Source: Pirellulales bacterium (GTDB lineage: Bacteria; Planctomycetota; Planctomycetia; Pirellulales; UBA1268). From it: a stretch of DNA of 64,000 nt. The notes beneath the pieces are model-generated. The model saw only the letters and a list, made by a program, of their open reading frames with translations. It had not been told where the DNA came from and made no database searches. The first letter of the stretch is position 1. Each line of letters starts with the position of its first letter. Shown one piece after another: positions 9,301 through 29,014 of this stretch. A program made the translations under genes and the position numbers. The stretch spans positions 807 to 64,806 of the forward strand of contig JALIAA010000092.1 of assembly GCA_030577455.1 (NCBI GenBank), read 5' to 3'.

Positions 9301-10347
9301 ATGCAGTCCGAATCTCAAGTTCCGCCAACCACCGACAGACTACACGAGGCTCACGAAAAGATTGTTGATCAACTTTCTCGAGTGATTGTTGGCCAACAGC
9401 AAGTAATTGATGAATTACTTATCTGTCTTTTTTCTCAGGGACACTGCTTGCTGGAAGGGGTTCCCGGGCTCGCAAAAACACTGCTCATCAGCACACTTGC
9501 CAGAAGCCTCGACCTGGCCTTCAGTAGAATACAATTTACACCTGATCTCATGCCGGCTGACATCATTGGGACAGAGGTACTTGAAGAAGACCGAAGCAGT
9601 GGAACCCGGAACCTGCGTTTCATTGAGGGGCCATTGTTCTCAAACGTGATCCTTGCCGATGAGATAAATCGAACACCTCCAAAAACACAATCTGCACTGC
9701 TCGAAGCTATGCAGGAGCGGCAGGTCAGCGTTGGTCGCACCCAACATCAACTGTCCGATCCCTTTTTTGTTCTTGCAACACAAAATCCGATTGAGCAAGA
9801 AGGCACCTATCCACTGCCAGAAGCACAGCAGGATCGTTTTATGTTCAAGGTTTTCGTCCAGTACCCATCATTTTCAGAAGAATTTGAGATTGCTCAGCGA
9901 ACAACCGGAACAACGACATCTGACGTCGAACCAATACTCACGGCATCAGAAATTATTGCACTTCAGAAAAGTGTCCGGGAGGTTCCCCTCAGTGACCATA
10001 TAGCACGTTATGCGATTGCGATCGTTCGGCAAACACGTGTCGGTGGTGATGGTGTTCCCGACTTTGTGTCTGATCAACTTGCGTGGGGCGCTGGCCCACG
10101 TGCCGTTCAATATTTAATTCTTGGATGCAAGGCGAGAGCCCTTCTTCAAGGAAGGTCCCATGTAACCATTGAGGACGTGCAAGCTCTCGCCGCCCCGGTA
10201 CTTCGACACCGAATTGTTGTCGGCTTTGCTGCAGAGAGTGAGGGTGTCACAGCAGACTCAATCATTAGGCAACTTATCGAGACAACCCCCGCACACGAGG
10301 ATGAACTCACGCGTGACCCCCGCTTCCAAACAATATTTGCCTCCTGA
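9301..10347 (+). CDS. MoxR-family AAA+ ATPase
   Basis: Walker A GVPGLAKT and Walker B ILADEINR. Overall pattern ([26 protein letters not shown]..., [29 protein letters not shown]) is typical of MoxR (AAA_3). GGAG lies 6 nt upstream of the ATG. Confidence 0.9.
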
Positions 10348-11236
10348 GGTACTCGCTCGTATCGGGCGGCTTGACCTCAGAGCTCAGGCCGTTGTCGAGG
10401 GAGTTCTTGCGGGGATGCATAAAAGCCCTTACAAGGGAAACTCCGTCGAGTTTCTTCAGCACCGTGAATACACACGAGGAGACGACCTCAGACGCGTCGA
10501 CTGGAAGGTCTGGGGACGGCAAGACAGGTTCTACGTCAAGGAATACGAGAACGAGACGAACCTTCGACTGTTTCTTCTTGTTGATGGCTCTGCGAGCATG
10601 GACTATGTCCCGCCTCGTTTTGAACGTGCCCCGGGATTAACAAAATACGACTATGCAGCCACACTAGCAGCCAGCCTTGCCTGGCTTGGACTTTCCCAAG
10701 GTGATGCGGTTGGTGCGTCTATTTTTGATGACCAGATTCGAACCAATGTTCCACCAAGAACAAATCGCTCTCACCTCAACAGCCTTATTGCTGGCTTTGA
10801 AAAGCCTCGTCAGCGGCACGCCTCCGATTTTCATGCTGTCCTGCGAAACCTTGCGGAGAATTTACCGCGCCGAGGATTAGTAATAATTTTCTCAGACTTA
10901 TTTGGGGATAGGGATGCACTCAGCAAAGGACTCCAGGTCCTGAGGCAGAGAGGGCACGATGTTGCTATCTGTCACATACTCGACGACGACGAAATAGACT
11001 TTCCTTTCGATGGCCCAACCCGCTTTGAGGGGCTTGAGGCAGGCGGAGAAATCAGTTGCAATCCGCGTGCTTTACGAGATGGATATATTGAAGCGATGGA
11101 AAAATTTCTTGCAGAAGTGCGGAGTCGGTCGGCTGCCTCTCAATGCGACTATCAACTCGCAAGAACAAGTCAGGCCGTAGATAAAACTCTTGTAAATTTT
11201 CTGTCTCGACGCTCCAGAACACGCGGAAGATCATAG
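10301..11236 (+). CDS. DUF58 domain protein (MoxR partner, VWA-like)
   Basis: [61 protein letters not shown] is the DUF58 signature ending in DxSxS. ORF track start 10169 trimmed to ATG 10301, a 47-nt overlap with the ATPase gene. Confidence 0.85.
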
Positions 11237-11285: not shown

Positions 11286-13586
11286 ATGCCAACATTTGAC
11301 TTCATGACGTTACTGTGGTGGGGGCTGCCATTTGCTGCAGCGCCAGTAATCATTCATCTCATAAATCTGCTACGACATCGAGTCATCCGTTGGCCAGCAA
11401 TGGAGTTCCTCCTTGCGAGCCAACGGAAGTACCGCACTCGTATTCTTTTAAAGCAACTTCTTCTGCTCCTGCTCCGAATTCTGGCAATCGTCGGCCTTGC
11501 TCTGCTATTTGCACAGCCTCGCTGGGATAGAAATCTCGGTGGTGTTCTTGGGAGCAACCGAACAAGACACGTCGTCCTCCTCGACGACAGCTACTCCATG
11601 GGTGAAGTGTTCGGCATTGGTGAATCATCTGACTTACCTGCGACGACCGCGATGAGCCGCGGCCGCAAGATGGTAGAACGTCTGCTTGAAGAACTCGCAG
11701 CAACACCTGGCCAGCAGGACTTTTCTCTTGGCCGTCTTTCCCGGCTTCAACGAACCTTCCCGGGCGATTTAAATAACACTGGCGATACAACCACCGATGA
11801 GCAACTTTTTGACATCTATGCCGAGGCGATTACACCACAAAACCTCGACTCTGTACGTACCGATGTTCAAAAGATTCGAACTTCATCCAGCACAACTGAG
11901 ATTGCCCCAGGAATTCGGAACATTGCACCAATGTTTGCCGGAGATGACGGGTCCGGTGTTCTCTGGCTCATAACTGATCTGAGAAGCAACGACTGGCGTG
12001 CTTCTGAAGACATCGCCAACCTATTAAAACCACTGGCAGACACAGGAATTGAAATTCACATCGTCGATACGGCAACAACTGAATCTGACACAGAATTTTT
12101 GCAAAATCTGGCACGATCAAATCTTACCGTCGAACGAGTTGAAATGATTGGTGGCACGCCTGTTTCCAACGTACTTCTCCCATGGGAAGTCACTGTTCGC
12201 AACTACTCGTCATCACCCTCGGGACAAGTGTCTCTTACTATCCGAGAAGATCGGCTTGAACGGCCTGGAATACAAATAGATTCAATTCCACCGGGTGACA
12301 TTGCCACCGCTCGATTTGAGTCTCGATTTCAGAACACGGGCAGTCATACGGTTGAAGTTGAATTACCAGCGGACCGTCTGCCACTCGATAACCGCCGGAC
12401 CGCCGTTGTTGAAGCGGTCGATGAGGCTGAAGTCCTTCTCATTACAACAAGTGACCGAAAAAACCTTGAGGATGATGCCTTTTATCTCGCAACTGCACTG
12501 AACCCAGGCGCAACTGCAGCAACAGGACTACGGCCACGTATTGAGCAACCTCGTGCCCTTACAACACTCGAACTCAAACGTTTTGACTCTATATGGCTTC
12601 TTGATGTGCCACGACTTGATGCAAGGGCAATCAGACCGTTGGAAGACTACGCTAGAAACGGCGGCGGTGTCGTTTTCTTTGTCGGCCCAAAGACAGACTA
12701 CAAATCAATAAATGAATTTCTCTTTCGTAACGGGCAAGGTGTTTTCCCCGTTCCTCTAGCTGGTGCTGTTGATCTTCTGAAGGACCAACAAAATCCAAAT
12801 GCCCCTGACATCGTTGCTGAAGAACATCCCATCGTCGCTATTCTTAGTGGTCGTCGAAATCCGTTTCTCGATGCTGTTGGTGTTGATCGCTATATGGCGG
12901 TCGACCGTTCGTTTCAGGCTCCTGTCGGCTCCGGCCTTCGTCGACTTTTATCGCTAAGAAACAAAGCATTTTTTGCCGTTGAGAAGCCATTCGGTGAAGG
13001 CATGGGAGTCGCATTTCTCTCAACGGCTGCACCCACCTGGAACAATTGGGCTCGCAATAACCCGAGCTGGGTTGTTGTCATGCTCGAACTTGAAAGGCAC
13101 CTTGCCAGACTTCAGCGAGAACAAGACGCAGTTCTTGTCGGGCAGCCAATCACGATCAACCTGCAACAGGGTATTGATCAAGTTGATGTTGATTTCATTT
13201 TGCCCCCAGACGATCGCATCGTGCAAGAAGTTGCGTCCATTGATCAGAACGGCAATCTTGCAACTGCGATGAAAGACACGTACGAACCAGGCACGTACAA
13301 GGCCCGCTGGCAAACTGTTTCTGGAACTCGACGAGAAGTGGCAACAGCCGTCAACATCAATCCGACTGAAGGCAATCTAGAGCGAGTTTCGCTCTCTGAT
13401 TTACCTGATTCCCTACCCGGCATCCCGTTCTCATACGACAGAGCGGACGACCTTGAGCCTCGTAATGAGAGTCATGGTGGTACATCTTTGGTCCGGCCCT
13501 TATTACTCATTTTGCTTATCGTCTTGGTCTGTGAACAAATGCTGGGCTATGCCGTGAGCTACCACAGAACAAGCAAGAGATCATAA
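11286..13586 (+). CDS. BatA-like protein (aerotolerance-regulator N-terminal double-TM domain) with VWA-like and GATase1-like regions
   Basis: N-terminus LLWWGLPFAAAPVIIHLINLLRHRVIRWPAMEFL; VVLLDDSYSMG; FDSIWLLDVPRLDARAIRPLEDYARNGGGVVFFVGP; C-terminal TM LLLILLIVLVCEQML. Confidence 0.75.
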   Translation: MPTFDFMTLLWWGLPFAAAPVIIHLINLLRHRVIRWPAMEFLLASQRKYRTRILLKQLLLLLLRILAIVGLALLFAQPRWDRNLGGVLGSNRTRHVVLLDDSYSMGEVFGIGESSDLPATTAMSRGRKMVERLLEELAATPGQQDFSLGRLSRLQRTFPGDLNNTGDTTTDEQLFDIYAEAITPQNLDSVRTDVQKIRTSSSTTEIAPGIRNIAPMFAGDDGSGVLWLITDLRSNDWRASEDIANLLKPLADTGIEIHIVDTATTESDTEFLQNLARSNLTVERVEMIGGTPVSNVLLPWEVTVRNYSSSPSGQVSLTIREDRLERPGIQIDSIPPGDIATARFESRFQNTGSHTVEVELPADRLPLDNRRTAVVEAVDEAEVLLITTSDRKNLEDDAFYLATALNPGATAATGLRPRIEQPRALTTLELKRFDSIWLLDVPRLDARAIRPLEDYARNGGGVVFFVGPKTDYKSINEFLFRNGQGVFPVPLAGAVDLLKDQQNPNAPDIVAEEHPIVAILSGRRNPFLDAVGVDRYMAVDRSFQAPVGSGLRRLLSLRNKAFFAVEKPFGEGMGVAFLSTAAPTWNNWARNNPSWVVVMLELERHLARLQREQDAVLVGQPITINLQQGIDQVDVDFILPPDDRIVQEVASIDQNGNLATAMKDTYEPGTYKARWQTVSGTRREVATAVNINPTEGNLERVSLSDLPDSLPGIPFSYDRADDLEPRNESHGGTSLVRPLLLILLIVLVCEQMLGYAVSYHRTSKRS

Positions 13587-13608: not shown

Positions 13609-16080
13609 ATGATGCATAACATTTCTGACACCATAGCGCACACTTTATTCTGCGTGACAGAGCATGTTGATTACCGTATCTCAAGCGGCCTTCTTGACAG
13701 CTTTTCAGAATGGTGGCACATGCCCGCGCTCGTGGCATGTGTAGCAACTGTGGCAGCATTCGTATTGTGGATTTATCACTGTGATGCTGCTGAAATACCT
13801 CGCTGGAAAGGTGCGCCTCTGGCAATGCTACGTATCTTTGCGTGGATCATCTTACTTCTCGGCTTACTCGACATCAGCCGCACAGCAGAACATGAAATCA
13901 GTTTTCCATCCCGAGTGGCTGTGCTTGTTGACGGAAGTGCGAGTATGACGCTGGCTGCAAATACTGGACCCGTTGACGCGGCACCGAACCAGACAGCAGG
14001 AGAGATGAGTCGAGCAAAGGTAGCGAAAGACATTCTTCACAACGGCTCCCTTGTCACTTCCCTTCGTGAGGTGCATGAGGTGTCGGTGTGGAGTTTTTCA
14101 ACCGATTCCGAAAAACTTGTCTTACTTCCTCAGGAGACACAACAAACCGAGCGTCCCGAGGTACAGGACGCCCCTCAGGAATGGCATGATAAATTGCTCT
14201 CACAGGGAACGGAAACACGGCTCGGCGATGCTCTCCTGAATGTCGTACGGCGTGAACCTGACGAATCACTTGCTGGTATTATCCTCCTCACGGATGGTGG
14301 AAATAATGCGGGAGTGGACCCAATACAAGCGGCAGCTACGATCGCCAATTCACCGACCGAAGTGCATGTTATAGGACTTGGATCAGAACGATTGCCTGCA
14401 AACGTGCGAGTAGCTGATCTCCTCGCTCCACCACGTATTTTTCCTGGCGACAGTTTTAGTATCACTGGTTATCTCCAGAGTCAGGGCCTCGAAGGCGAGA
14501 TCGCTCAAGTTGAACTTCTTGAAGCTGAAGCGGGCACTATGATCGATGCTTCTTCCAAGGAACCTACTGGCCGCGTCATAGACACAACTGAAGTACGATT
14601 AGCGGCTGATGGTGAACTCTTAGCCGTACGTTTTGATCTAGATGGCCTGGACAATCCAGGCAGCCGTGTACTTGCAATCCGTGTAATCCCCCCACAAACG
14701 GATAGTCGCTCAGGAGATAATTTAGAAGCTGCAGACATTGAAGTTGTCGATGCAAAAACTCAGGTATTACTTTTATCTGGTGGACCGAGTCGGGAATATC
14801 GTTTCTTAAGGAATGTACTTCAGAGAGACCAGAGTTTTGCTGTTGATGTTCTTTTGAATTCGGCACCGTCAGGAATATCGCAAGATGCTCGTAAAATTCT
14901 TAATGGCTTTCCAGAAAGTAGGGAAGCACTTGATGAATATGATGTTATCGTTGCAATTGACTACGACTGGGAACAATTAGACCCCGCATCGACCGCTCGC
15001 CTTGAGCGTTGGGTGAGCGAAGACTCTGGAGGTCTTTTCTTTGTCGCTGGTAACGTTTTTATGGAAAGTTGGCTGACAGACCGACGCTTTGAGGCAATCC
15101 GAAATCTTCACCCTGTTGAACTTCGCCGCGGTGAGCAGATCATGCTTACGCCGCAACTCTCCGCCATCGATCCACTCCCACTCCGTTTCAGTCCTGACGG
15201 CAAGGAAAGTGAGTTTTTATGGCTTTCTTCAAATCCTATTGCGAGCCAGACCATCTGGAGTGAATTCCCAGGATTCTACGCATGCTTTGATACATCGGTC
15301 GCTAAACCCGGAGCCACCGTTTATGCCAGAATTGGTCGGGACGAGGGACTTGGTCGTACCCGCGAAGGACCGATCTATTTTGCGGGCCAACTCTACGGAT
15401 CTGGCACAGTCTTTTATGCAGGGAGTGGAGAACTCTGGCGAATACGTGGTGTCGATCCAGCCGCTCATGAACGGCTCGTCACGCAGACAGTCCGGCACGT
15501 TGCCAAAGGACGACTTCTACGAGGCTCAAGTCGGGGCAGACTCATGCTTGAACGCGATCGTTATCCGGTTGGAGAGACCATTATCGCGCGTATCATGGAC
15601 ACCTCGGATGACATTCGGCCCGAAATCGAAGCAGTCAGTCCTGATGGACAACGAATTCAGGTACCCATTGTCTCAGATCCAGTTCGAGCTGGTGGTCTCC
15701 AAGGCAGTTTTGTCGTAACGAGTGAAGGTAGCTGGCAGATCGTCCTCACTATTGATGGCAACAAAAATGACCGGACCGTTCGTCGGATTCAAGCAACATT
15801 ACCAGACCGTGAACTGGCCCAACCAAAACTTGAGCGAGAGATTTTAAGTCAGGTTGCTCTGACTACAGGTGGCTCCAGCTGGTTTCCAACTGGACCAACA
15901 ATGAATACGGCTGACGTCACAAAGATAGTCAACTCGCTCAAAGACCGCTCTCGTAAAGAATATGAAACCGGTGAAAATGACAAAACATTCAAAAAGACTT
16001 TGAACAGCTTTTTACTGGGTATTGGAATTTTCCTCCTCTGTAGTGAGTGGATTCTACGAAGATTGGTAAAACTCGCGTAG
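13609..16080 (+). CDS. Membrane-anchored von Willebrand factor A (VWA) domain protein (BatB-like)
   Basis: TM helices, then MIDAS elements [33 protein letters not shown]. GATase1-like block YDVIVAIDYDW...DSGGLFFVAG. C-terminal TM LLGIGIFLLCSEWIL. Confidence 0.75.
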   Translation: MMHNISDTIAHTLFCVTEHVDYRISSGLLDSFSEWWHMPALVACVATVAAFVLWIYHCDAAEIPRWKGAPLAMLRIFAWIILLLGLLDISRTAEHEISFPSRVAVLVDGSASMTLAANTGPVDAAPNQTAGEMSRAKVAKDILHNGSLVTSLREVHEVSVWSFSTDSEKLVLLPQETQQTERPEVQDAPQEWHDKLLSQGTETRLGDALLNVVRREPDESLAGIILLTDGGNNAGVDPIQAAATIANSPTEVHVIGLGSERLPANVRVADLLAPPRIFPGDSFSITGYLQSQGLEGEIAQVELLEAEAGTMIDASSKEPTGRVIDTTEVRLAADGELLAVRFDLDGLDNPGSRVLAIRVIPPQTDSRSGDNLEAADIEVVDAKTQVLLLSGGPSREYRFLRNVLQRDQSFAVDVLLNSAPSGISQDARKILNGFPESREALDEYDVIVAIDYDWEQLDPASTARLERWVSEDSGGLFFVAGNVFMESWLTDRRFEAIRNLHPVELRRGEQIMLTPQLSAIDPLPLRFSPDGKESEFLWLSSNPIASQTIWSEFPGFYACFDTSVAKPGATVYARIGRDEGLGRTREGPIYFAGQLYGSGTVFYAGSGELWRIRGVDPAAHERLVTQTVRHVAKGRLLRGSSRGRLMLERDRYPVGETIIARIMDTSDDIRPEIEAVSPDGQRIQVPIVSDPVRAGGLQGSFVVTSEGSWQIVLTIDGNKNDRTVRRIQATLPDRELAQPKLEREILSQVALTTGGSSWFPTGPTMNTADVTKIVNSLKDRSRKEYETGENDKTFKKTLNSFLLGIGIFLLCSEWILRRLVKLA

Positions 16081-16117
16081 GCTATTTGCCAGCAAACTGG
16101 CTTCAGAGTCACTTATT

Positions 16118-18421: not shown

Positions 18422-18435
18422 GGCAATTTCCCCAA

Positions 18436-20070
18436 ATGCTGACGCACAGCCAACACAACACCGCCCAGCTATCCTTTGTGAACTCTACTTTCACACGGTG
18501 TCTTCTTGTCGGTATAGGCATTACGATCACCTCAGCAGCACCAGGATGGGCACAAACTGTCTCACCACCAAACTCACAACTTGCCGAAAGGGAACGTGCA
18601 CTCAGCACTCGAATGCGTGAATTGGAGGCAACCTTCCTTCGCCTCGCAGACCTTCTTGACACAACCGATCCACGTAGAGCGACTACCCTTCGTTCAGCAT
18701 TCGAGCAAGCAAGAGAACTTGAGGTGACTGATCGTCTCGATACGATTGTTGAACTGCTGGAAAAGGGTCAGCTATTGAAAGCAGGTACTGGTCAAGATGC
18801 TGCTATTGACCGCCTGCGTGAGTTACTCGCCGTGCTTGAGTCTGGAGAAAACAGAAAAACAGTCACTGACTCGAAGAAAAAAGTGAAAGAGTTTCTCGGA
18901 CGAATAAATAATCTCATTGCTCGACAAATGGGCCTTGAGGGAACAACAGAAGCCGGAGGCAACCCTGACGAGATAGCAAAGAAACAAAACACTCTTGAGG
19001 ACGACACTCAGGCACTCGCTGAAGATGTTGACGCGTTTCGTCGAGAGTCCGCCAATGCTGCGGGCGTAAAGCCACAAAGTGATTCCGACGACAAGCCACA
19101 ATCAGAATCAGCGAAGGATGGTTCTCCAAATGAATCATCCGAAGGGCAGGGGGGCGAGAACAGCAACTCACCTGATCAAGACAGTGACTCAGGTGAGAAA
19201 AAAAGTAACCAACAGGAACCCCAAGGAAATGATGAAGTTTCTCGAGCAGACCGAACAAATCGACGACTTGAGGCGGCCCGTTCACGTATGCAGGAAGCAA
19301 AAGAGAAACTTGATGCTGTCGAGCCAGAAGCCGCTCGAAAAGAGCAGGAAAAAGCATTAGCCGAATTAGAGGCAGCTCGAGCTGAACTTGAAGAAATCCT
19401 TCGACAACTCCGCGAAGAAGAGATTGAGCGTCTCTTAGTCAAACTCGAGGCACGAATCCGAGACATGCTACGGGCAGAACGAATGATTCTCCGGGGGGTC
19501 GAGCAACTCTCGAATGAGACGGCCACAACAAGTAAACGAGAACGAGAACTTGAGTCCACTCGGCTTGGATCTGAACAAAATGTGATTACTGCAAACATCA
19601 CGCGGGCATTGACACTTGTCCGCGATGATGGCTCGGCGGTAGCAATACCAGAAGCCCTTCAGCAGATCAGAGAAGACTCCTCATTGGCAGCAGATCGGCT
19701 CAAGAGAAGTGACTACGGTTCATTCACACAAGGTATCGTTGAAGGCTTGGTGGGCAGCCTGGAAGAACTTCTGTCAGCTCTCGAGCGAGCAGAGCGCGAG
19801 CAGCAGGACAGGCAGGAACAGGGACAGGCTCGTGGTCGACCTGCAAAACCCGGCGAGCAGCCACTCGTAGACAAAATCGCAGAACTTAAAATGTTGCGGA
19901 TTCTCCAAACACGGGTAAACGGAAGAACATCCCGGTTTTCCGACCTACTCAACGAGGGGACTGAACAGGCTTCAGAAACTGAATTAATCGAGGCCCTTGG
20001 AAGGCTGGCGAATCGACAGGAGCGAGTAGAGCGTGCTGCTCATGATATCGCAACAGGCCGCACTGAGTAA
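18436..20070 (+). CDS. Secreted acidic coiled-coil protein, unknown function
   Basis: Signal peptide LLVGIGITITSAAPGWAQ. Heptad-like E/R/L/A-rich sequence throughout, with a D/E/S/Q low-complexity segment (KPQSDSDDKPQSESAKDGSPNESSEGQGGENSNSPDQDSDSGEKK). Confidence 0.6.
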   Translation: MLTHSQHNTAQLSFVNSTFTRCLLVGIGITITSAAPGWAQTVSPPNSQLAERERALSTRMRELEATFLRLADLLDTTDPRRATTLRSAFEQARELEVTDRLDTIVELLEKGQLLKAGTGQDAAIDRLRELLAVLESGENRKTVTDSKKKVKEFLGRINNLIARQMGLEGTTEAGGNPDEIAKKQNTLEDDTQALAEDVDAFRRESANAAGVKPQSDSDDKPQSESAKDGSPNESSEGQGGENSNSPDQDSDSGEKKSNQQEPQGNDEVSRADRTNRRLEAARSRMQEAKEKLDAVEPEAARKEQEKALAELEAARAELEEILRQLREEEIERLLVKLEARIRDMLRAERMILRGVEQLSNETATTSKRERELESTRLGSEQNVITANITRALTLVRDDGSAVAIPEALQQIREDSSLAADRLKRSDYGSFTQGIVEGLVGSLEELLSALERAEREQQDRQEQGQARGRPAKPGEQPLVDKIAELKMLRILQTRVNGRTSRFSDLLNEGTEQASETELIEALGRLANRQERVERAAHDIATGRTE

Positions 20071-20180
20071 TCGAAAAATGTGGCTCGGAGTATACTCTGA
20101 TGATGGCGTTTCTCTGCTCGAACAATACAATGACGATACTTCACATCCTGAGTCCCTCAGGAGGCAACACTTTGCAACGA

Positions 20181-21266
20181 ATGAACGCAGCTCGACTCTC
20201 TGTAGCGATTGCCTGTCTTTGCACCTGTCTTGTCTTGACGGATCCCGCACATTTGCGTGCAGAGGGAACACCGATTTCCCGAGATTCCTCCGAAAACCTT
20301 ACCCCGCAGGATGAGCTTGCACGAAGAGCCAGTTGGAGCCAACCAAGCGAGACGGAAAATACCAAGCGACTAGAAAAGTGGCTTTCGGACCAAACGAAAA
20401 CAAGCCAGGAAAGAGCAACTCTAGCAACGACTACACCACGCAAGGGCATGGATGCTCTTGACTATCTCATGCAGGTCATCTGCGCTGTTGAGAAACAACA
20501 CCAAGGATTGCTTACTGACATCTCGTCCATGCCTCCCATTGAAATCATCCGCTTAACAGAGAAACTGAATCGGACTGAAAACGATACATTTGCTATCGAG
20601 ACAATTCGTTTGTGGACTGCCCGAAAGTTAATCCGGCTCGGCCGTTATGACGAGGCAGCACTGCTCCTCGATGGGCTACCCCTTGACTCCAGTGTTGACC
20701 CCACGACTTTACTTTTCTGCAAGGCTGCCTGTGAGTATTGGCTACTGGAAATTGAGGAGGCTGCACAAAGTGTCGCCAAACTACTTGAGAGAGAAAAAGA
20801 GCTACCCGTCCGATACCGACAACTTGCCTTGCTCTTGGAAACAGACATAACCTCACTCAAAGAAGATTCTCTCGATCACATTTCTCGGCGAATGAGAGAC
20901 GTAACACGACGACTTGAACTCGGGCATGCTGGGCCCGGGGTACAAGCGGTCCAGAGTGGGGTCATTGATTCACTCGACAAACTGATTAAGAAACTCGAAG
21001 AACAAAAAAAACAGCAGGCTTCTGGAGGTGCAGGCAGTGCCGGTGGCAGCATGTCCGATGGTCGGCCGATGGAAGACAGCCAACTCGCTGGTGGGAAAGG
21101 CCGTGGTGAAGTAAAAAAACGAGAACTCGGTGAAACTGATGAATGGGGCGATCTCCCACCCCGCGAGAGAGAAGACGCCTTGCAGCAAATCGGCAGAGAC
21201 TATCCAGCGCACTACCGAGAGGCGATTGAACAGTACTTCAAGCGACTTGCAACGGGCAAGCCATAA
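20181..21266 (+). CDS. Secreted helical protein, unknown function
   Basis: ORF track 20100..21266. ATG 20181 gives signal peptide MNAARLSVAIACLCTCLVLTDPAHLRAEG (ATG 20130 is also possible). C-terminal motif WGDLPPREREDALQQIGRDYPAHYREAIEQYFKRLA. Confidence 0.55.
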   Translation: MNAARLSVAIACLCTCLVLTDPAHLRAEGTPISRDSSENLTPQDELARRASWSQPSETENTKRLEKWLSDQTKTSQERATLATTTPRKGMDALDYLMQVICAVEKQHQGLLTDISSMPPIEIIRLTEKLNRTENDTFAIETIRLWTARKLIRLGRYDEAALLLDGLPLDSSVDPTTLLFCKAACEYWLLEIEEAAQSVAKLLEREKELPVRYRQLALLLETDITSLKEDSLDHISRRMRDVTRRLELGHAGPGVQAVQSGVIDSLDKLIKKLEEQKKQQASGGAGSAGGSMSDGRPMEDSQLAGGKGRGEVKKRELGETDEWGDLPPREREDALQQIGRDYPAHYREAIEQYFKRLATGKP

Positions 21267-21285
21267 AACGAACGGAAGAAATGAA

Positions 21286-22668
21286 GTGGCAGTCCTTGAT
21301 CTCCCAAAACACGAGTCAATCAAACAGCGACAATCCGGCAGCCACATTTGCGGTAAAGCCTGGACCGCTCAACCCTACCTCCTGACAGGCGTCCTTGTTC
21401 TCTTCGCACTCTGGGCACCTTGTCTAACACCTGCCCAAGAAAACGCTCCGAAACAAGACGCCACCGTCACCCTTTCAAACGGAGACATTGTTCGTGGAAA
21501 ACTTGTACATCTAGATGATGAAAACGTCACTGTTTCCGACACGTCAAAAACTCCTGTTGAGACAAGCACGTTAAAGATACCTTCTGTCCGTAAAATAACT
21601 GTACCGGCACGCTCGACTAACGTGAACAAATTCATGATTGGGCTTATTGATGGTTCTTATGTAAGAGCAGATACCATTTCAACAGATGACTCAACGGCTT
21701 TTCTATCAATTGGAGACAGTGCGATTGAAGTACCGCGAGACACTGTCCACTGGATTGCTTTTCAAGAACCCCAGTCAAATTCACCAGACTCATACAAATG
21801 GCTTGAGGAACTCCCTGAAAACCCAGCAGCTGACATCGTTGCCATCAAGCGTGATACTGCGTGGCAATTCATTGAATGTGCAATCACTCAAATCACACCA
21901 GAAAATGTTGTAGTGCTTCTCGACGGTGAAAGTATTCCAGTCAAGCGAAGCAAAATCTTTGGCATTTGTTGGTTGCGACCCGGAGAAAAGCCAGGCAAAG
22001 ATATAGAGCCCAACCCGTCAGACATTCTATTACGCTCACCATTAGGTGAAATGAAGTGCCGTAAAATAACGTGGAATGATGACCTATATTGTTGGGAGAT
22101 AACGATGGCAGCAGTAGAAGATGACTTCGTTATTGCTCTCCCAGCAGACGCCCTATCATCGATCGATTACACCTTCGGACGACACATTGACCTTACCCGA
22201 AGGCCACCAGCAAACTCGAGAACTGACCCCTACTTCGGTGGACTTGCAGGCGATGCAACACTTTTACAGTACTTCGCACCAAGAAGCATCATGACACCCG
22301 ATGATGAGAATCAAGACTCATCAGTTCCGACACTACTTGTTCATCCTCGAACTGAAATAACATGGACTGTTCCTGACGACTCACGCCGTTTTCAGGCAAG
22401 TTTTTCACTAGCCAAGAATTCTGTCTCACCAACGGTAGTCATGGTTCAGATTGATAATTCTGAAGTTTTTCAAACCGTGCTCGGAAACTCAGAAGAAGGA
22501 GACATGAGCAATCAGCCTCTCTCTGTCGACATAGCTCTTGATGGCGGCAAACAACTAAAAATCATTGTTGACTTTTTAAAGAAACCTTTAGATGGCACAG
22601 ATGAAAAGAATGTAGCTTCTTTGCTCAGTGGCCCGATTCAAGTCAAGAATCCGAGAATCGAGCGGTAA
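21286..22668 (+). CDS. Secreted protein with C-terminal NPCBM-like beta-sandwich module (tentative)
   Basis: ORF track 21130..22668 overlaps the upstream gene and has no ATG after its stop. In-frame GTG 21286 (GGAAG upstream) gives signal peptide LLTGVLVLFALWAPCLTPAQE. C-terminal pattern LLVHPRTEITWTVPDDSRRFQASFSL...VVMVQIDNSEVF...LSVDIALDGGKQLKIIVDF resembles NPCBM-type modules. Start uncertain. Confidence 0.5.
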   Translation: MAVLDLPKHESIKQRQSGSHICGKAWTAQPYLLTGVLVLFALWAPCLTPAQENAPKQDATVTLSNGDIVRGKLVHLDDENVTVSDTSKTPVETSTLKIPSVRKITVPARSTNVNKFMIGLIDGSYVRADTISTDDSTAFLSIGDSAIEVPRDTVHWIAFQEPQSNSPDSYKWLEELPENPAADIVAIKRDTAWQFIECAITQITPENVVVLLDGESIPVKRSKIFGICWLRPGEKPGKDIEPNPSDILLRSPLGEMKCRKITWNDDLYCWEITMAAVEDDFVIALPADALSSIDYTFGRHIDLTRRPPANSRTDPYFGGLAGDATLLQYFAPRSIMTPDDENQDSSVPTLLVHPRTEITWTVPDDSRRFQASFSLAKNSVSPTVVMVQIDNSEVFQTVLGNSEEGDMSNQPLSVDIALDGGKQLKIIVDFLKKPLDGTDEKNVASLLSGPIQVKNPRIER

Positions 22669-22674
22669 ATCAAT

Positions 22675-24474
22675 ATGCGTACAACTCATAATCAAGCCAT
22701 TACTAAAAAAACAGACCGGTATATCGTCATCGTGATATTGATATCACTTCTGGCAACTACATGCCCAGTTGCATTTTCTGCCGGTAACAACGAAAAACTG
22801 CCAGACGTTCTTTCGGCTCAGCAAGAACGCATCCGCGTCATTGAAACCGCTGCAAAAACTTCGGTATCTATTTTTGCTGGCAGTTCCGGTGGAGGCTCTG
22901 GTGTTCTCATTAGCCCTGACGGATACGCCCTCACAAACTTTCACGTCGTCCAGCCAGCTGGAATTGCCATGCGATGTGGGCTCAACGATGGACAACTCTA
23001 CGAGGCCGTCCTCGTGGGCCTGGATCCGACGGGCGATCTTGCAGTCATAAAATTGATCGGAAAAGATGCCTTTCCATACGCTCCTATCGGTGACAGTGAC
23101 ACCGTTTCTGTCGGCGATGCCTGCTACACCATCGGCAATCCTTTTTTACTAGCAACCAACCTCCAGCCGTCCGTGAGTGCGGGCATTGTTTCGGGGGTCC
23201 ATCGCTATCAATTTCCGGCTGGCACTCTTCTCGAATACGCAGACTGTCTTCAGGTCGATGCCGCTATCAATCCAGGTAATTCCGGCGGAGGACTCTTTAA
23301 TGCACGTGGAGAACTGATTGGTATTAACGGCCGTGCTTCATTTGAAAAACGCGGCAGAATTAACGTCGGGGCAGGCTATGCCATTTCTTCCAATCAGGTT
23401 CACAATTTCTTAGGGATACTTAAAAGTGGCCATCTCGCAGACCATGCAACCCTTGGGGCAACCGTTGCGACAAGTGCTGATGGACGAGTTGTTGTCTCCG
23501 ATATCCTTGAATCTTCAGATACATGGCGAAAAGGACTGCGAATCGATGACGAGATCATTGAATTGGCGGGAAGAAGTGTCCGTAGCGTCAATGCCTTCAA
23601 AAACATTCTTGGGACACTACCATCTGGCTGGCGAATTCCTGTAGTCTTCCGAAGGGCTGGAAGACCGAGTGAAATATTTGTTGAGCTAGCCGGAGTTCAC
23701 ACACCTGCAATGCTCAACGAACTCATGGCTGGACGCCGAGCACCCCCATCAGAAAACAAACCTGGCGACAGACCAAAACCCAAACCAAACCCACTGGCAC
23801 CTGATCCGAAAGACCTTCCCGAATCGATTCAAAAATTCTACGAACCTCGTTTTGGCTACGCCAACTTTTATTTCAACAGAATCGAACTTGAACGGGTCCG
23901 TGATACTCTCCGACGCAGAAAATCAGCGTCTGAAAAACAGGAAATATCATGGAGATACCAAGGACGGCTTGAGGCCGGCGGCTCCTTTGAGATTGAACTG
24001 GGCGACCAGTCGGCAACAATTTCTCTTCCAACCGGAACATCTCGTTGGGAGCAGGCTGCTGCCGACGCAGGTCTTTCTGCTGAAGCTGGGTTTGACTCAA
24101 GCCCTCCAGGATCAGGAGGCATGCTAGCAGCATTAACAATGTGGCGACGCCTTCTTATAAAAGGTGCGCAGGATATTGATGGACGCATCACCTATTGGGG
24201 GCAGCAGCCTCTTTATTCAACATCCACAAATCAGTTGGCTGATGTCCTTGAACTAACAACAAGCAGTTGTCGTTCTCGATTTTTTATTGATGAATTTGGA
24301 AATGTTTCGCACGTGACATTTTTTCTTGGAGCCTCCTCTACTTCATGCGACCTGCATTTCACTGGACTACGTAAACGCGGGCCATACTGGCAGCCAACGC
24401 ACCTGACTGTCGACTACGACGGCGACCGCTTTGCTACATTCCACTTCGAGAAGGGAGAGCAAAAAAACAAATGA
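22675..24474 (+). CDS. HtrA/DegP-like trypsin-fold serine protease with PDZ domain (catalytic triad intact)
   Basis: His in GYALTNFHVV, Asp in DPTGDLAVIKL, Ser in DAAINPGNSGGGLFN. PDZ-like region GATVATSADGRVVVSDILESSDTWRKGLRIDDEIIELAG. N-terminal TM/signal segment. Confidence 0.85.
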   Translation: MRTTHNQAITKKTDRYIVIVILISLLATTCPVAFSAGNNEKLPDVLSAQQERIRVIETAAKTSVSIFAGSSGGGSGVLISPDGYALTNFHVVQPAGIAMRCGLNDGQLYEAVLVGLDPTGDLAVIKLIGKDAFPYAPIGDSDTVSVGDACYTIGNPFLLATNLQPSVSAGIVSGVHRYQFPAGTLLEYADCLQVDAAINPGNSGGGLFNARGELIGINGRASFEKRGRINVGAGYAISSNQVHNFLGILKSGHLADHATLGATVATSADGRVVVSDILESSDTWRKGLRIDDEIIELAGRSVRSVNAFKNILGTLPSGWRIPVVFRRAGRPSEIFVELAGVHTPAMLNELMAGRRAPPSENKPGDRPKPKPNPLAPDPKDLPESIQKFYEPRFGYANFYFNRIELERVRDTLRRRKSASEKQEISWRYQGRLEAGGSFEIELGDQSATISLPTGTSRWEQAAADAGLSAEAGFDSSPPGSGGMLAALTMWRRLLIKGAQDIDGRITYWGQQPLYSTSTNQLADVLELTTSSCRSRFFIDEFGNVSHVTFFLGASSTSCDLHFTGLRKRGPYWQPTHLTVDYDGDRFATFHFEKGEQKNK

Positions 24475-25541
24475 CTTTAAGAACCTCACACCCCACTGCC
24501 ATATGCTCGAGAGTACTCCAAGTAGTCACAGTACTGGCTGTTCCTACGCTCGCACTCTGCGCGACTCGAGCGATGGGTGGTGACGTCACAGCAGTAAGTG
24601 TGGAGGCTGCAAGCCGTGTTGCGAAACTCTATGGAGCCGGTGGCATTCGTGGTCTGGAGTCATATCAAACAGGAATACTCGTCTCTCCATCGGGCCATAT
24701 CTTGACAGTACTGAGTACAGCGATCGACTCAGAAGTGATTGATTGTGTTCTTGATGATGGCCGCCGCTATACCGCGAGCCTCGTTGGCGCGGACCTGCGC
24801 CGAGAATTAGCAGTCTTAAAAATAGATGGCACGAATCTACCTTTTTTCAATCTTTCGGCGGACGCTCCTCGACAAGTTGTTGGAACCCGTGTGTTGGCTT
24901 TATCAAATCTTTTTGGGGTGGCCGTTGGTGACGAGCGGGTAAGCATTCAACAGGGCGTCATTGCGGCCCACGTACCGCTTCGAGCCCGCCGTGGGTCTCA
25001 CGAAGCTGCATATCGTGGAGACGTCTATATTCTGGATTGCACAACCAACAATCCGGGCTCTCCTGGTGGATGCCTCATTAACTGGCAGGGGAATTGCATT
25101 GGCATGCTTGGAAAGGAATTGCGATCTGCTGAAAATGCAACATGGTTGAGTTACGCAATTCCAACAAGCGAGCTGGCTCTAGGACTTGAAGCCATTCTCA
25201 GTGGAAGCAACAACGAATCACTTGCAGGCGAGAAAGAGGCTTCAGATTTTGACATCCGTTCACTTGGCCTGGAATTGGTTCCCGATTTACTCAATCTGAC
25301 ACCACCTTTTGTCGAGGCGATCATGCCAAACACGCAGGCTGCTGAAGCTGACTTGCAGGCTGATGATCTTATTGTCGCGGTTGGAAATCGCACCGTCACA
25401 TCACAGCGAGGCCTTCGCCAAGAACTCTCCTATCTTATTCCTGGTGACCTCATCCAACTGAATATCATACGTAATGGAAGAATCGTTCTGGTAGATTTGG
25501 GCGTCGTTCCCTCTCTCACTGAACCCAGAGGGAAAAGGTGA
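24471..25541 (+). CDS. HtrA-like trypsin-fold protein with PDZ domain; catalytic triad positions substituted (probable pseudoprotease)
   Basis: Aligns by eye with the upstream protease, but LTNFHVV becomes LTVLSTA (His to Ser), DPTGDLAVIKL becomes DLRRELAVLKI (Asp to Glu), and PGNSGGG becomes PGSPGGC (Ser position is Pro). ATGA start/stop overlap with the upstream gene. Confidence 0.75.
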   Translation: MTLRTSHPTAICSRVLQVVTVLAVPTLALCATRAMGGDVTAVSVEAASRVAKLYGAGGIRGLESYQTGILVSPSGHILTVLSTAIDSEVIDCVLDDGRRYTASLVGADLRRELAVLKIDGTNLPFFNLSADAPRQVVGTRVLALSNLFGVAVGDERVSIQQGVIAAHVPLRARRGSHEAAYRGDVYILDCTTNNPGSPGGCLINWQGNCIGMLGKELRSAENATWLSYAIPTSELALGLEAILSGSNNESLAGEKEASDFDIRSLGLELVPDLLNLTPPFVEAIMPNTQAAEADLQADDLIVAVGNRTVTSQRGLRQELSYLIPGDLIQLNIIRNGRIVLVDLGVVPSLTEPRGKR

Positions 25542-25544
25542 CAA

Positions 25545-27644
25545 ATGAATGGTGTCTTCCGACGAATTACTTCATATCAAGTAATGCTGGCCGTATGGCT
25601 TCTTTGTGCCGTGTCTGTGAATCCGTGCTACCCGGCTCAAGCCACACAACAGACACCAGCCGAAAGAGCCCTCGCCGAACAAACAGCTTTTCAAAACGCC
25701 CTGAATGGAATTGCTGATTCCGTTGTTCGAATAGAACCAAGTGGTTTATCTGCAGCCTCCCTACAAGGTGCGCGTGAAGGGACACCGACTGCAGGTCCAT
25801 CGAGTGGGCTTGTCGTTGGAGCCGATGGTTGGATTCTTACTACTGAATTTGCCGTTCCCTCTGATATTGAAGAAGTAGTCATCACGCTGCCACCAAAGAA
25901 GAAAACAACAGGAAACACAAAGCAGTCGCCTAAACGGCTTGTGGGACGAGTCGCTGGACGAGACCTCAATCGGCGTCTGGTTCTTCTCAAGTGTGATCCT
26001 GAAGAGCCACTCACTGAAGCTCAATTTGTTCCTCAAGAAAACGTACGGACAGGTGAATGGGCACTTGCTGTTGGCCGAGTATGGGATCTCTATGAGCCAA
26101 GCGTCGCGATAGGCATTGTTTCTGCGGTAGGCCGATGCTGGGGCAGAGCCATCCAAACCGATGCCGCAATATCGCCAGTGAATTACGGTGGGCCTTTGCT
26201 CAACATTGAGGGCAAGGTTTTTGGCATCATTGCACCACTTCCTGCAGAGACTGCGGGCATGTCTACGGGAACCGAGTTGTATGACTCGGGTGTCGGGTTC
26301 GCCATACCTATGCACGACATTTTTCCGCTCATTCCTCGACTCAAGAAAGGAGAAACACTCAAACCTGGGCTATTGGGAATTGGCTACTCGACAACGGACC
26401 CTATCAATGGACGCCCTCTTGTGGAAATAGTCCGAGCTGGCTCGCCAGCAGCCAAATCGGGCCTCAAAAGTGGTGATCTCATCACACAAATAAACGGTCA
26501 GTCGATACAACGCATTGCAGATGTACGACATGTACTCACACCGAAACTGGCAGGCGACGCCGTCGAAATCACCGTTCAACGTCCAGAGAGAAAAGCACCA
26601 CTGTCAATTCGTGCTGTCCTCACTGGCAAACTACCACCGTGGAAGCGGTCAATGCTTGGTATTGCTCCAGTGCGTCAGCCATCAAAGAGTAATGCAAAAA
26701 GCACAGAGGAGGGCGTCATTGTCAAGTGGACGTGGCCGAACAGTCCGGCAGAGAAAGCTGGTATTCAGCCTCAAGACGTGATCACTGGCGCCGCAATAGT
26801 TTCACAGACCAATGAAGAGGATCTTCCTCTGCGATCAATCACATCATCAAACGAATTAGCCGGCCTCCTTGGTGGACTCACAACCAATACTGATGTCGTC
26901 CTCAAGATTCGCAACTCTAAAACATCCCGTAAGGTCCGAGTCACAACCGCATCTTTCCCAGAACAGCCTTCAAATGAGGTGCCTGAATTCGACTCAACCA
27001 ACAGGGTCACCCCACCACCTACAATCGTGAAGCTTGAAATCCCGGAGGTAGCGGAACCTTCGTGGGCATTGATTCCGGAACAGCAGGATGGCCCGCCGGC
27101 TGGAGTCCTTGTGTTTTTTGACGAGCCATCTGGAATGCTTTCGGAAAAAGCTGTGACCGCCTGGACTTCGAACTGGCGGGAGGCTGTTGCCCACTATCGC
27201 GTTGCTCTGGTTTTAGTACCATCTTCAGATTCCGGCAGTTGGCGGCAAGCAGATCTAGAGAGGGTCGGAAAGACAATCGGCGCATTGGCACAACGCTGCA
27301 AAATTGATCCAACCAGAATTGCCTTCGCTGGCTCAAAAGCAGGGGGGACGTTCGCTTGGCTGGGAGCAAATCGGTTCGACACGATAGCTCGTGGGGTCTG
27401 CTTAATCGATGCTGACATCCCTCGCCGAACACGTATCCGCGAAGCCTCTCCAGATCGTTTCCGTTGGGTACTTTTTGGCACTACAACCATGGAAAAAAAT
27501 AAGGAGGAAGGAAACCAGCAGTTTCAAAAAACCATGAAACGGCTCCGTGAAGCTGGTCTCCCTGTCGGCGAACTATCGTTAGGAAATGAAACGGAAAGAG
27601 CATCTAAACTCTGCCAATGGGTCGAATCACTCGGAGTGCTTTAG
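25545..27644 (+). CDS. HtrA-like trypsin-fold protein with two PDZ-like regions and a C-terminal alpha/beta-hydrolase-like region; all three catalytic triad positions replaced
   Basis: LTTEFAV in place of LTNFHVV (no His), RDLNRRLVLLK in place of DPTGDLAVIKL (no Asp), DAAISPVNYGGPLLN in place of DAAINPGNSGGGLFN (Ser to Tyr). PDZ-like SPAAKSGLKSGDLITQINGQSI and SPAEKAGIQPQDVITGA. C-terminal IAFAGSKAGGTFAW resembles an esterase nucleophile elbow, but with the Ser shifted. Confidence 0.75.
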   Translation: MNGVFRRITSYQVMLAVWLLCAVSVNPCYPAQATQQTPAERALAEQTAFQNALNGIADSVVRIEPSGLSAASLQGAREGTPTAGPSSGLVVGADGWILTTEFAVPSDIEEVVITLPPKKKTTGNTKQSPKRLVGRVAGRDLNRRLVLLKCDPEEPLTEAQFVPQENVRTGEWALAVGRVWDLYEPSVAIGIVSAVGRCWGRAIQTDAAISPVNYGGPLLNIEGKVFGIIAPLPAETAGMSTGTELYDSGVGFAIPMHDIFPLIPRLKKGETLKPGLLGIGYSTTDPINGRPLVEIVRAGSPAAKSGLKSGDLITQINGQSIQRIADVRHVLTPKLAGDAVEITVQRPERKAPLSIRAVLTGKLPPWKRSMLGIAPVRQPSKSNAKSTEEGVIVKWTWPNSPAEKAGIQPQDVITGAAIVSQTNEEDLPLRSITSSNELAGLLGGLTTNTDVVLKIRNSKTSRKVRVTTASFPEQPSNEVPEFDSTNRVTPPPTIVKLEIPEVAEPSWALIPEQQDGPPAGVLVFFDEPSGMLSEKAVTAWTSNWREAVAHYRVALVLVPSSDSGSWRQADLERVGKTIGALAQRCKIDPTRIAFAGSKAGGTFAWLGANRFDTIARGVCLIDADIPRRTRIREASPDRFRWVLFGTTTMEKNKEEGNQQFQKTMKRLREAGLPVGELSLGNETERASKLCQWVESLGVL

Positions 27645-29014
27645 AACCTGTCATCAGCGAATGTGGGCCTTAGGGCTGTCTTCGACACTTTGTTCCAATA
27701 CCTCGAAAATCTACCGAGATCTTTTACTTTACTGGCGTCACAAAAAGATGGCCAATCAAGAGAAACAACTGGCGTTGCATCGGACAGCCTGTCGACAACG
27801 TGACGCACGGCGGGACAGGATGTGTTCGCCATACTGATAGCGTTCACCTTATGCGCGCGAGCTCTCTCCTCCAAAACCATAGCAGTATCTCCAAACCATA
27901 TTTCCACTTCTGGAAGATCTGCCAAACACTCACAAATGAACGCTATGCGTTTATAGGAGGGAAGCTCATCAGATAGCCAGTGCTGGTCAAATACAAAAAT
28001 TGCCGGCGACTCTGGAAAGCGAAGTTTGGCGGGAGAGCAAGCAGAAAGTGAATCAAGAGTCATCCATACAAGCGATTCATCAGGGATATCCGAAGAGTCC
28101 CATGACACTACTGGCGGTATCGTCAGCCTGACTTCTCGCTCATCAGAACCATTCATGAACAACTTTTCATTAAGCTGTTCGTAAGTTCCCTCAAAATCAC
28201 AATGCCCGAAAGCAGGGCACGTTTCACAATAAATTCCAGCGGTAAAACGCTCTAAATTCTCACGGTTAAAAATATATGGCTTGCTAGAGAACGTTCCCGC
28301 AACCCACTGCCATGAAAAATTATTACTGGCGGGATCCGCGTCGAGAAGATGCTGAAGAAACCAGGCAGCTCCCACCCTCCAAGTCACTTTGCGAGTATGA
28401 ACAAGCCAGGACGCAAGCCACATTCGTTCATGATTGTGAAGCCAACCATCGTGTATAAGTTTTTTACAAAAAGCATCGATACAGTCCAAGCCAGTTTCCC
28501 CGCGAGCAACCGTATCGGGAAGGTAGTCAATGACTTGTCCTCTATGCCTAGCGGCGGGAGTTTCAAAATCATGCCAGACTCCTTCAGGGCGAGCTGCACG
28601 AACCCGCTGCCAATAATCTCGCCATCCCAATTCGGCAATAAGTTTTTCGGCTTGCGATACTTGCTGTACTTTCGAAAGAGCTTCATCACGAACCTCTGTA
28701 AGAGCCAACACTCCGTGACGAAGCCACGGAGACAATTTTGTAACATCGCCTGAAACAAAATTCCTGGTGCGACCATACCGAGCTGGTTCGATCTTCTGAA
28801 GTTGTTCAATTGCTTTAAGTCGTCCTCCACGAAATTGACTTCTGGAGAAGTTTTCCATTTCAACTGGCATCGGAGGCGGTAGCTCGTGCCCGGTTACGAG
28901 ATGGAACTCACGAGCAATTTGTGAATGCATCTCCTCAGAATCATTCCTGTAAGACTGCAGATTCTTCAAAACGGCACCTTTTTCATCTGCCCGAAATACA
29001 GGCACCAGGTGCAT
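27641..29014 (-). CDS. Photolyase/cryptochrome-superfamily protein with inverted domain order (FAD-binding helical domain first, alpha/beta domain last)
   Basis: Residues ~55-290 carry FAD-domain motifs: FRGGRLKAIEQL, TKLSPWLRHGVL, ELGWRDYW, ETGLDCIDAFCKKLIHDGWLHNHERMWLASWLV, DADPASNNFSWQWVAG. Residues ~315-425 (LVWMTLDSLSACSP...PAIFVFDQHWL...YKRIAFICECLADL...EIWFGDTAMVLEE...) match the pattern of the normally N-terminal photolyase alpha/beta domain. Confidence 0.8.
   Translation of the reverse strand: MHLVPVFRADEKGAVLKNLQSYRNDSEEMHSQIAREFHLVTGHELPPPMPVEMENFSRSQFRGGRLKAIEQLQKIEPARYGRTRNFVSGDVTKLSPWLRHGVLALTEVRDEALSKVQQVSQAEKLIAELGWRDYWQRVRAARPEGVWHDFETPAARHRGQVIDYLPDTVARGETGLDCIDAFCKKLIHDGWLHNHERMWLASWLVHTRKVTWRVGAAWFLQHLLDADPASNNFSWQWVAGTFSSKPYIFNRENLERFTAGIYCETCPAFGHCDFEGTYEQLNEKLFMNGSDEREVRLTIPPVVSWDSSDIPDESLVWMTLDSLSACSPAKLRFPESPAIFVFDQHWLSDELPSYKRIAFICECLADLPEVEIWFGDTAMVLEERARAHKVNAISMANTSCPAVRHVVDRLSDATPVVSLDWPSFCDASKVKDLGRFSRYWNKVSKTALRPTFADDRF

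Follow-up and report, generated by a model that had tools for sequence, protein, structure and literature searches.

Two HtrA-family pseudoproteases are conserved beside a predicted active protease in a MoxR/VWA gene cluster of planctomycetes

We analyzed three adjacent HtrA-type genes, hereafter G1, G2, and G3, in a 64,000-nucleotide stretch of DNA from a Pirellulales bacterium (GenBank assembly GCA_030577455.1, contig JALIAA010000092.1, positions 807 to 64,806 of the forward strand; this whole stretch is referred to as the window). All three genes lie on the + strand: G1 (22675..24474; 599 amino acids (aa)) encodes a predicted active HtrA-type protease, G2 (24471..25541; 356 aa) a DegS-like pseudoprotease, and G3 (25545..27644; 699 aa) a DegQ-like pseudoprotease. 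This succession of one active and two dead copies is found in every genome with resolved G1 triad columns among those holding all three genes (n = 62). Our preferred interpretation, to which we assign a probability of about 0.6, is that the trio forms one periplasmic mixed HtrA oligomer, i.e., a catalytic G1 combined with two ligand-binding and/or regulatory pseudoproteases, G2 and G3.

Catalytic columns were assigned through HMMER alignment to the solved chains of DegP, DegQ, and DegS. They are occupied by His90/Asp121/Ser203 in G1, Ser82/Glu112/Pro198 in G2, and Phe102/Arg144/Tyr214 in G3, and hidden Markov model (HMM) and structure-based alignments agree on this assignment. An earlier note made from the letters of the window alone (the original prediction) had described an intact protease followed by two paralogues with substituted triads; the three genes are present at the coordinates it gave, all the motifs it quoted occur in the translations, and its view that the fold motifs and PDZ regions are kept in all three proteins is borne out by Trypsin_2 matches, PDZ domains, and the alignments to DegP, DegQ, and DegS. 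Specifically, Pfam Trypsin_2 scores above its gathering threshold in each protein (G1 2.9e-31, G2 7.3e-16, G3 2.1e-19), and each carries a Sec-type signal peptide. In G1, this signal peptide is followed by the protease domain (residues ~60–250), a divergent PDZ domain (~256–340), a Pro-rich linker, and a C-terminal LolA-like domain; G2 is composed of a signal peptide, a protease fold, and one PDZ domain (~261–345) with an intact SLGL loop; and G3 adds to its signal peptide and protease fold two PDZ domains (~273–358 and ~367–470) and a dead alpha/beta-hydrolase domain. The single PDZ domain of G2 and both of those in G3 exceed the Pfam cut-off, while the one in G1 falls below it, aligns to DegP PDZ1, and has a DHATLGATV loop that is invariant in orthologues. 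The carboxylate-binding loops of all four PDZ domains are conserved. An AlphaFold model of G3 (predicted local distance difference test (pLDDT) 82.1) matches DegQ/DegP at E ~1e-29. None of the curated NCBIfam models reached its cut-off for G1, G2, or G3, and the Do-family model TIGR02037 (cut-off 416.2 bits) gave 196.7, 96.2, and 160.5 bits, respectively. Judged by sequence, G2 and G3 are members of the HtrA fold family but not peptidases, and their public annotation as “serine protease Do” or “S1C family serine protease” is, on the same grounds, wrong for hundreds of G2/G3 sequences. Separately, two residues of G1, Cys101 (22975–22977) and Cys191 (23245–23247), are conserved at ≥90% in both orthologue sets and may form a periplasmic disulfide in the protease domain.

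Next, we evaluated the age of these substitutions across database homologues (106 full-length sequences for G1, 120 for G2 at 53–99% identity, and 120 for G3 down to 30% identity) and across genomes. For the latter, a G3-centred scan with one genome per species yielded >565 G3 relatives. The best 80 loci all come from planctomycete metagenome-assembled genomes (MAGs), labelled mostly as Pirellulales, Pirellulaceae, Thermoguttaceae, Planctomycetaceae, or Planctomycetia; all relatives in this study are MAGs or metagenome contigs, and some of their taxonomic labels are doubtful. Five MAGs labelled Candidatus Kuenenia (L013, L019, L022, L026, and L033) carry a Pirellulales-type cluster with G3 at ~41% identity, similar to neighbouring freshwater Pirellulales MAGs, and this label looks doubtful.

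The His-Asp-Ser triad of G1 was found in 106/106 full-length database homologues and in all 61 genome orthologues resolved at these columns (61 of 66 alignment rows, the others being gapped or fragmentary). For G2, the Ser/Glu/Pro combination occupied the triad columns in 107 of the 121 aligned sequences from the database set, the remainder being SQP or SEA. Across 69 genome orthologues of G2, the His column held Ser in 66, Asn in one, and a gap in two, the Asp column was mostly Glu, and the Ser column was mostly Pro or Ala, with Ser at this nucleophile column in three. In G3, the His column was taken by Phe and the Ser column by Tyr in 119/120 homologues, some with as little as 30% identity, and in 79/81 genome orthologues, while the Asp column varied freely (R/G/M/H/K/Q). 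Within the 62 loci holding all three genes, G1 displayed His-Asp-Ser in 58 and was gapped or fragmentary at those columns in four, G2 displayed Ser-Glu-(Pro/Ala) apart from rare variants, and G3 displayed Phe-x-Tyr. The recurrence of this pattern in ~60 genomes places it far beyond chance. Ratios of non-synonymous to synonymous substitution rates (dN/dS) against close relatives were 0.07–0.12 for G1, 0.10–0.155 for G2, and 0.12–0.17 for G3, compared to ~0.2 for the upstream gene U8 and 0.05 for MoxR. With the same residues retained down to 30% identity and dN/dS of 0.10–0.17, the substitutions in G2 and G3 are old and fixed rather than products of decay. We also searched the protease domains of both proteins for a His conserved at ≥90% (and likewise for Ser, Lys, and Cys), and no such His was found: G3 has a single, unconserved His in this domain, and the best candidate in G2, H76, is ~80% conserved. 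In G3, Ser210 is invariant. Every check that was run on the retention of inactive copies beside an active protease, i.e., triad columns, fixation, and dN/dS, favoured it; the orthologue alignments place the substitutions outside strain-specific change, and the protease domains of G2 and G3 offer no conserved alternative His.

The three genes are tightly packed. As the original prediction had described, G1 and G2 share an ATGA overlap of stop and start (24471–24474, + strand), and the G2-G3 junction (25539..25547, + strand) reads TGA-caa-ATG, leaving a 3-nt gap at 25542–25544; U8, the last of the four genes (U5–U8) upstream of the trio, stops 6 nt before G1. Across loci, an overlap of exactly −4 was observed for 61/96 G1-G2, 46/98 G2-G3, and 45/96 U8-G1 junctions, and 57/95 loci had a −4 or −1 overlap between G2 and G3; because the start codon closest to the preceding stop was chosen in each case, these distances are skewed toward short values, though not toward exactly −4. 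G1 and G2 lay in order upstream of G3 in 60 of the 62 G3-centred loci with ≥3.3 kb of upstream sequence, the two exceptions being L058 and L067.

In addition, 13 clusters of G1 homologues are G1-G2 fusions of 907–1030 aa, in which G1 residues ~14–592 are followed by G2 residues ~16/46–352. The first protease domain of these fusions has an intact triad (TNFHV/NPGNSGG), while in the second the His column holds Ser and the nucleophile column holds Pro, Ala, or Ser. In a simple neighbour-joining tree of 119 G1 homologue clusters, built without support values, the fusions fell into two distinct monophyletic clades, each embedded among unfused sequences and substantially diverged within itself, suggesting at least two fusion events that were long maintained. 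One fusion from a genome assembly (L035) is an uninterrupted 1029-codon frame, and another (P0325, in L161) occupies the expected operon slot, following BatA, VWA, U5, U6, U7, and U8 and overlapping G3 by 4 nt. The signal peptide of G2 is lost in fusion clade B, as expected if both halves act in one compartment. Overall, the conserved gene order, the −4 overlaps, the two independent fusion clades, and the fusion found in the operon slot support a joint function of the trio.

Beyond their HtrA cores, G1 and G3 each carry an additional C-terminal domain. In G1 (residues 380–599; 23812..24471, + strand), this domain has no Pfam match, and its AlphaFold model (pLDDT 82.7, predicted template modelling score 0.82) resembles the half-barrels of LolA, LolB, and RseB. 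The leading Foldseek matches all belong to the LolA superfamily (LolB 9tpm at 9.6e-5, 4mxt, LolA3 9tp6, 3buu, and RseB 2v42), at a probability of ~1.0, E-values of only 1e-4 to 1e-2, and template modelling (TM) scores of 0.43–0.49. The motif PPGSGG.LAAL..WR is invariant within the domain. A profile of the domain recovered 437 clusters among 1.84 billion representatives, and only G1-type proteins, in which it lies past residue ~350 of 560–690-aa proteins, in the middle of 920–980-aa fusions, or in apparent fragments. Going by the modelled fold, this domain may bind a lipid or lipoprotein tail.

For the C-terminal domain of G3 (residues 490–699; 27012..27641, + strand), the original prediction had proposed an alpha/beta-hydrolase-like region with a degenerate nucleophile elbow, and both parts of this proposal stand. 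A family profile matched esterases of known structure (3wyd at 1.3e-9, 4zrs at 1e-7, 8iy8, 8daj, 2h1i, and 1auo), Abhydrolase_3 was detected in 12/21 members of the family (the window copy alone had no Pfam hit), and the structural model shows alternating strands and helices. The elbow reads GSKAG, with Lys598 at the nucleophile position instead of the Ser of GxSxG, and the esterase Asp and His are absent too. A Ser occupies the nucleophile column in only 2/121 homologues and 1/81 genome orthologues, and the full esterase set (GYSSG/CGDxD/H.YP) was found among the 121 G3 homologues only in two distant ones, P0231 and P0236. The ancestor of G3 may have had an active esterase domain, inactivated afterwards in nearly all lineages. 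With both its protease triad and its esterase triad lost, G3 is a double pseudoenzyme. The same profile also matched TAL effectors; we rejected these matches as repeat artefacts, with no significant single stretch.

The original prediction had further attached the trio to a MoxR/VWA cluster, and the wider comparison supports this link. On the + strand upstream of G1, the window encodes a MoxR-type AAA+ ATPase (9301..10347; AAA_3 1.9e-63), a DUF58 protein (10169..11236; DUF58 6.3e-44), a BatA-like membrane protein that has a double-transmembrane domain at its N-terminus and matches VWA only weakly (11286..13586; BatA 3.2e-10, TIGR02226 1.5e-14), a VWA-domain protein (13609..16080; VWA 2.7e-4, below the Pfam cut-off, at a conserved position), a membrane-anchored protein U5 (16118–18421), an acidic coiled-coil protein U6 (18436–20070), U7 (20100–21266), and U8 (about 21283–22668). 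The N-termini of U6, U7, and U8 are signal-peptide-like. U5–U8 gave no usable match in Pfam (E ≤ 1) or NCBIfam, nor did U5 and U8 in the PDB, and no BatD or TPR family exceeded its threshold in any of the four. A U5-centred scan, seeded with an 8-sequence alignment of U5 because a 19-sequence version was too diverse, provided 80 metagenome loci. MoxR and DUF58 were present in 40/40 of these with enough upstream DNA, G1–G3 in 29 of the 33 with ≥8 kb downstream, and the complete series of MoxR, DUF58, BatA-like, VWA, U5, U6, U7, U8, G1, G2, and G3 in 25 loci. Every locus reaching far enough upstream began with a giant pyrroloquinoline quinone (PQQ)/BamB-like beta-propeller protein (1638 aa in the window; 3078–7994, + strand) followed by a prenyltransferase/squalene-cyclase-like alpha-toroid protein (361 aa; 8069–9154, + strand), and since both are kept upstream of MoxR, the conserved cluster may count 13 genes.

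From MoxR to G3, gaps between genes in the window do not exceed 49 nt. A scan of 8000–27990 found no intergenic terminator-like site (all were intragenic) and fewer promoter-like sites than expected from shuffled sequence, a result to be read as no more than “no obvious internal terminator”. The TAG stop of G3 (27642–27644) overlaps the TAA stop of a convergent photolyase-like gene (minus strand, 27641–27643), which leaves no intergenic room for a terminator after G3. Two listed open reading frames (ORFs) in this region probably start too early: the DUF58 ORF begins at a TTG that makes it overlap MoxR by 179 nt (10169–10347), with the true start probably near 10350, after MoxR, and the U8 ORF begins at 21130, with the true start probably near 21283, past the end of U7. 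The secreted protein U6 is strongly acidic and rich in coiled coils, and its low-complexity Asp/Glu/Ser/Gln stretches account for the high AT skew (0.23) at 18–20 kb. One contig recovered in the scans, L081 (Ga0209631_10000421; 57 kb, JGI metagenome), shares 99% identity with the window over U5 as well as its gene order, and it probably derives from the same population as the source of the window. Another, L155, runs off its contig end and carries an insert of ~3 kb between U6 and U7 (2717–5871).

HtrA proteases are classically homo-oligomers, with trimers joined via their protease domains, and in DegS, DegP, and DegQ the binding of C-termini by PDZ domains is relayed to the neighbouring subunit by the L3, LD, L1, and L2 loops. 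Against this background, the triad states and their deep conservation, the purifying selection, the synteny and coupling of the genes, the fusions, and the domain folds are what the data show, and from them we infer a physical assembly of the three proteins. G1, G2, and G3 would be translated from one mRNA, mostly via overlapping stop and start codons, and hence in matched amounts. Given that HtrA proteases are built from trimers, the simplest form of the assembly would be a mixed trimer (G1·G2·G3), or else stacked trimers; a cage, as the original prediction had suggested, is another form that it might take. Within it, G2 and G3 would supply three PDZ domains with intact carboxylate-binding loops, and their dead clefts could hold a peptide without cutting it, G3 having kept the oxyanion-loop NYGGP along with its invariant Phe and Tyr. 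The dead esterase domain of G3 would be a further possible binding module, and G1 would contribute its own PDZ and LolA-like domains. Ligand binding would then be relayed to the activation loops of a neighbouring subunit, as in DegS and DegP, switching on in trans the sole active site, that of G1, although regulation in the opposite direction is considered below. The likely clients would be exported products of the same operon, i.e., the BatA-like protein, the VWA protein, and U5–U8, and the trio would serve as a dedicated processing or quality-control protease of the MoxR/VWA envelope system, comparable to the support that MamO lends to MamE-dependent proteolysis in magnetosomes. A more specific form of this proposal can be offered only tentatively, and we would not be surprised to see it fail: an obligate and asymmetric hetero-oligomer of HtrA proteins with just one active site, in which the anciently fixed G2 (through its Ser/Glu) and G3 (through the invariant aromatic Phe/Tyr pair in its dead cleft) would act as sensors, assisted by the LolA-like and dead esterase domains, and gate the one catalytic subunit, whose task would be to mature or police a MoxR/VWA envelope machine specific to planctomycetes.

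Several observations weigh against a mixed oligomer that is tied to this operon. G3 occurs without G1 and G2 upstream in L058 and L067, and can therefore be encoded apart from them. The G1-G2 fusions are a minority (1/160 fetched loci and 13/120 listed G1 homologue clusters), no G2-G3 fusion was found in 160 loci, and G3 was never fused. The TM-scores behind the LolA-like assignment in G1 are modest. On two freshwater contigs, L096 and L113, the cluster splits after U6, which is followed (13997–22299 in L096) by minus-strand hopanoid genes (radical-SAM/DUF3463 HpnH-like and squalene-hopene cyclase), as well as a histidine kinase, a response regulator, and a polyprenyl synthetase, so that U7, U8, and G1–G3 must be sited elsewhere or be absent. 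In the divergent lineage of L152, the genes from MoxR to U8 are intact, and the slot of the trio holds a gene (L152:13930–16077) that overlaps U8 by 4 nt and encodes a protein of 715 aa whose C-terminus carries an FGE-sulfatase (formylglycine-generating-enzyme-like) domain. It is possible that the operon ends in an exchangeable cassette. These three loci indicate that the trio is not indispensable to the upstream genes at this site, and its linkage to the MoxR/VWA cluster is usual rather than absolute.

Among other explanations, G2 and G3 could be independent, non-proteolytic chaperones or holdases that would form homo-oligomers and bind unfolded envelope proteins through their PDZ domains and dead clefts, with the shared operon reflecting only a shared pathway. 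Active-site mutants of DegP (S210A) keep chaperone activity, and the conserved PDZ loops, the strongly purifying selection, and the ability of G3 to be encoded away from G1 and G2 (L058 and L067) would all fit such a role. We nonetheless consider it unlikely, because two independent and long-kept fusions place a live protease domain and a dead one on the same chain, because the overlapping-codon coupling and invariant order argue for matched production, and because HtrA paralogues are able to co-assemble. Alternatively, G2 and G3 may co-assemble with G1 as built-in brakes, diluting or blocking it as dominant-negative subunits and so holding a dangerous periplasmic protease in check until release. 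The genomic evidence for a mixed oligomer serves this possibility equally and does not discriminate it from activation or adaptation; dead subunits in mixed trimers would by construction reduce the number of active sites, and HtrA activity is cooperative across the trimer. However, the invariant Phe/Tyr of G3 and the conserved PDZ loops suggest specific ligand binding instead of mere dilution, and the one precedent to have been studied is a case where proteolysis is promoted by the dead partner (PMC4794232), which makes a purely inhibitory role rather improbable.

The absence of a conserved His from either protease domain, and thus of a general base, bears on another alternative, that G2 and/or G3 are still enzymes with non-canonical catalysis, relying for instance on Ser82/Glu112 in G2, on Tyr214 in G3, or on a displaced nucleophile such as Ser210 in G3. 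The strong conservation of these replacements and of Ser210 would agree with this idea, as would the three G2 genome orthologues with Ser at the nucleophile column, but most G2 proteins have Pro or Ala in this column and G3 has Tyr, and the Asp column of G3 is free to vary, so that we see very little chance of residual catalysis. Decay, i.e., G2 and G3 as functionless duplicates on their way to pseudogenes, has in its favour only the loss of the triad in the window sequence itself; with reading frames intact in ~60 genomes, the substitutions identical down to 30% identity, and ω values of 0.10–0.17, we give it virtually no credence and reject pseudogenisation. A mixed oligomer of one catalytic and two non-catalytic subunits remains our preferred interpretation.

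The closest precedent for the trio is MamE/MamO of magnetotactic bacteria, where the inactive HtrA protein MamO promotes proteolysis by its active partner MamE (PMC4794232). In both systems, an active HtrA protease and a paralogue whose triad has degenerated are encoded in one functional gene cluster, and the dead copy is kept by selection; both reflect duplication followed by catalytic loss, having arisen independently. However, the trio includes two different dead paralogues rather than one, each with its own fixed substitutions, and it lacks the TauE-like membrane domain and di-His metal site of MamO, G3 having no conserved His; the MamO model NF040961 (cut-off 800) scored 62.4, 25.2, and 15.7 bits against G1, G2, and G3. 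The setting differs as well, i.e., a MoxR/VWA operon in Planctomycetia instead of a magnetosome island, and so do the extra LolA-like and dead esterase domains and the G1-G2 fusions, none of which are features of MamE/MamO. With DegS, DegP, and DegQ of E. coli, which are the best PDB and Foldseek matches of the trio, it shares the protease-PDZ layout (G2 resembling DegS, and G3 resembling DegQ/DegP), the carboxylate-binding loops of the PDZ domains, and the periplasmic location, but these canonical proteins form homo-oligomers with all subunits active, whereas G2 and G3 have no triad. Structural matches of G2 and G3 also included PDB entry 4ic6 (Deg8). Like other hetero-oligomeric HtrAs, the Arabidopsis Deg5-Deg8 complex combines paralogous HtrA subunits, both of which keep their triads, and unlike the trio it is not known to have an operon or fixed pseudo-subunits. 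RseB is a separate lipid-sensing LolA-fold protein that shields RseA from DegS in the sigma-E pathway; it thus associates a LolA fold with a DegS-type protease, while in G1 this fold is fused into the protease itself. The likeness of G1 to RseB is at the level of the fold only (TM 0.2–0.5), and the operon shows no evident anti-sigma factor.

The front of the cluster resembles Bat-type operons (Bacteroides aerotolerance) in its MoxR AAA_3 ATPase, DUF58 protein, BatA N-terminal double-transmembrane domain, and VWA domains, although the VWA matches are weak here. The Bat operons described so far end with the TPR proteins BatC/BatE and with BatD (PMC3557215, PMC5700661), while the planctomycete cluster extends beyond them with U5–U8, the giant PQQ propeller, the prenyltransferase-like protein, and the trio. 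The Bat-operon papers we consulted mention no HtrA genes, and the literature outside subscription journals yielded no prior description of this operon or trio in Planctomycetes, nor of LolA-like HtrA fusions. Pseudoprotease partners of HtrA proteases are already known, while a fixed three-paralogue module with these domains, fusions, and operon is, as far as we can tell, undescribed.

If the more specific form of our interpretation is correct, the trio would represent the first case in bacteria of an HtrA complex with three fixed paralogues, with a logic similar to that of proteasomes, whose beta subunits include active and inactive ones. More generally, such a trio, fixed across the lineage, would show how allosteric control is handed over to dedicated non-catalytic subunits, in a partnership backed by natural fusions. 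The LolA-like domain, found in this family only, and the esterase domain, dead in nearly all members, represent new HtrA domain combinations, and a practical consequence is that the public annotation of G2 and G3 needs correcting. Finally, the substrates of this protease would point to what the conserved planctomycete envelope operon builds.

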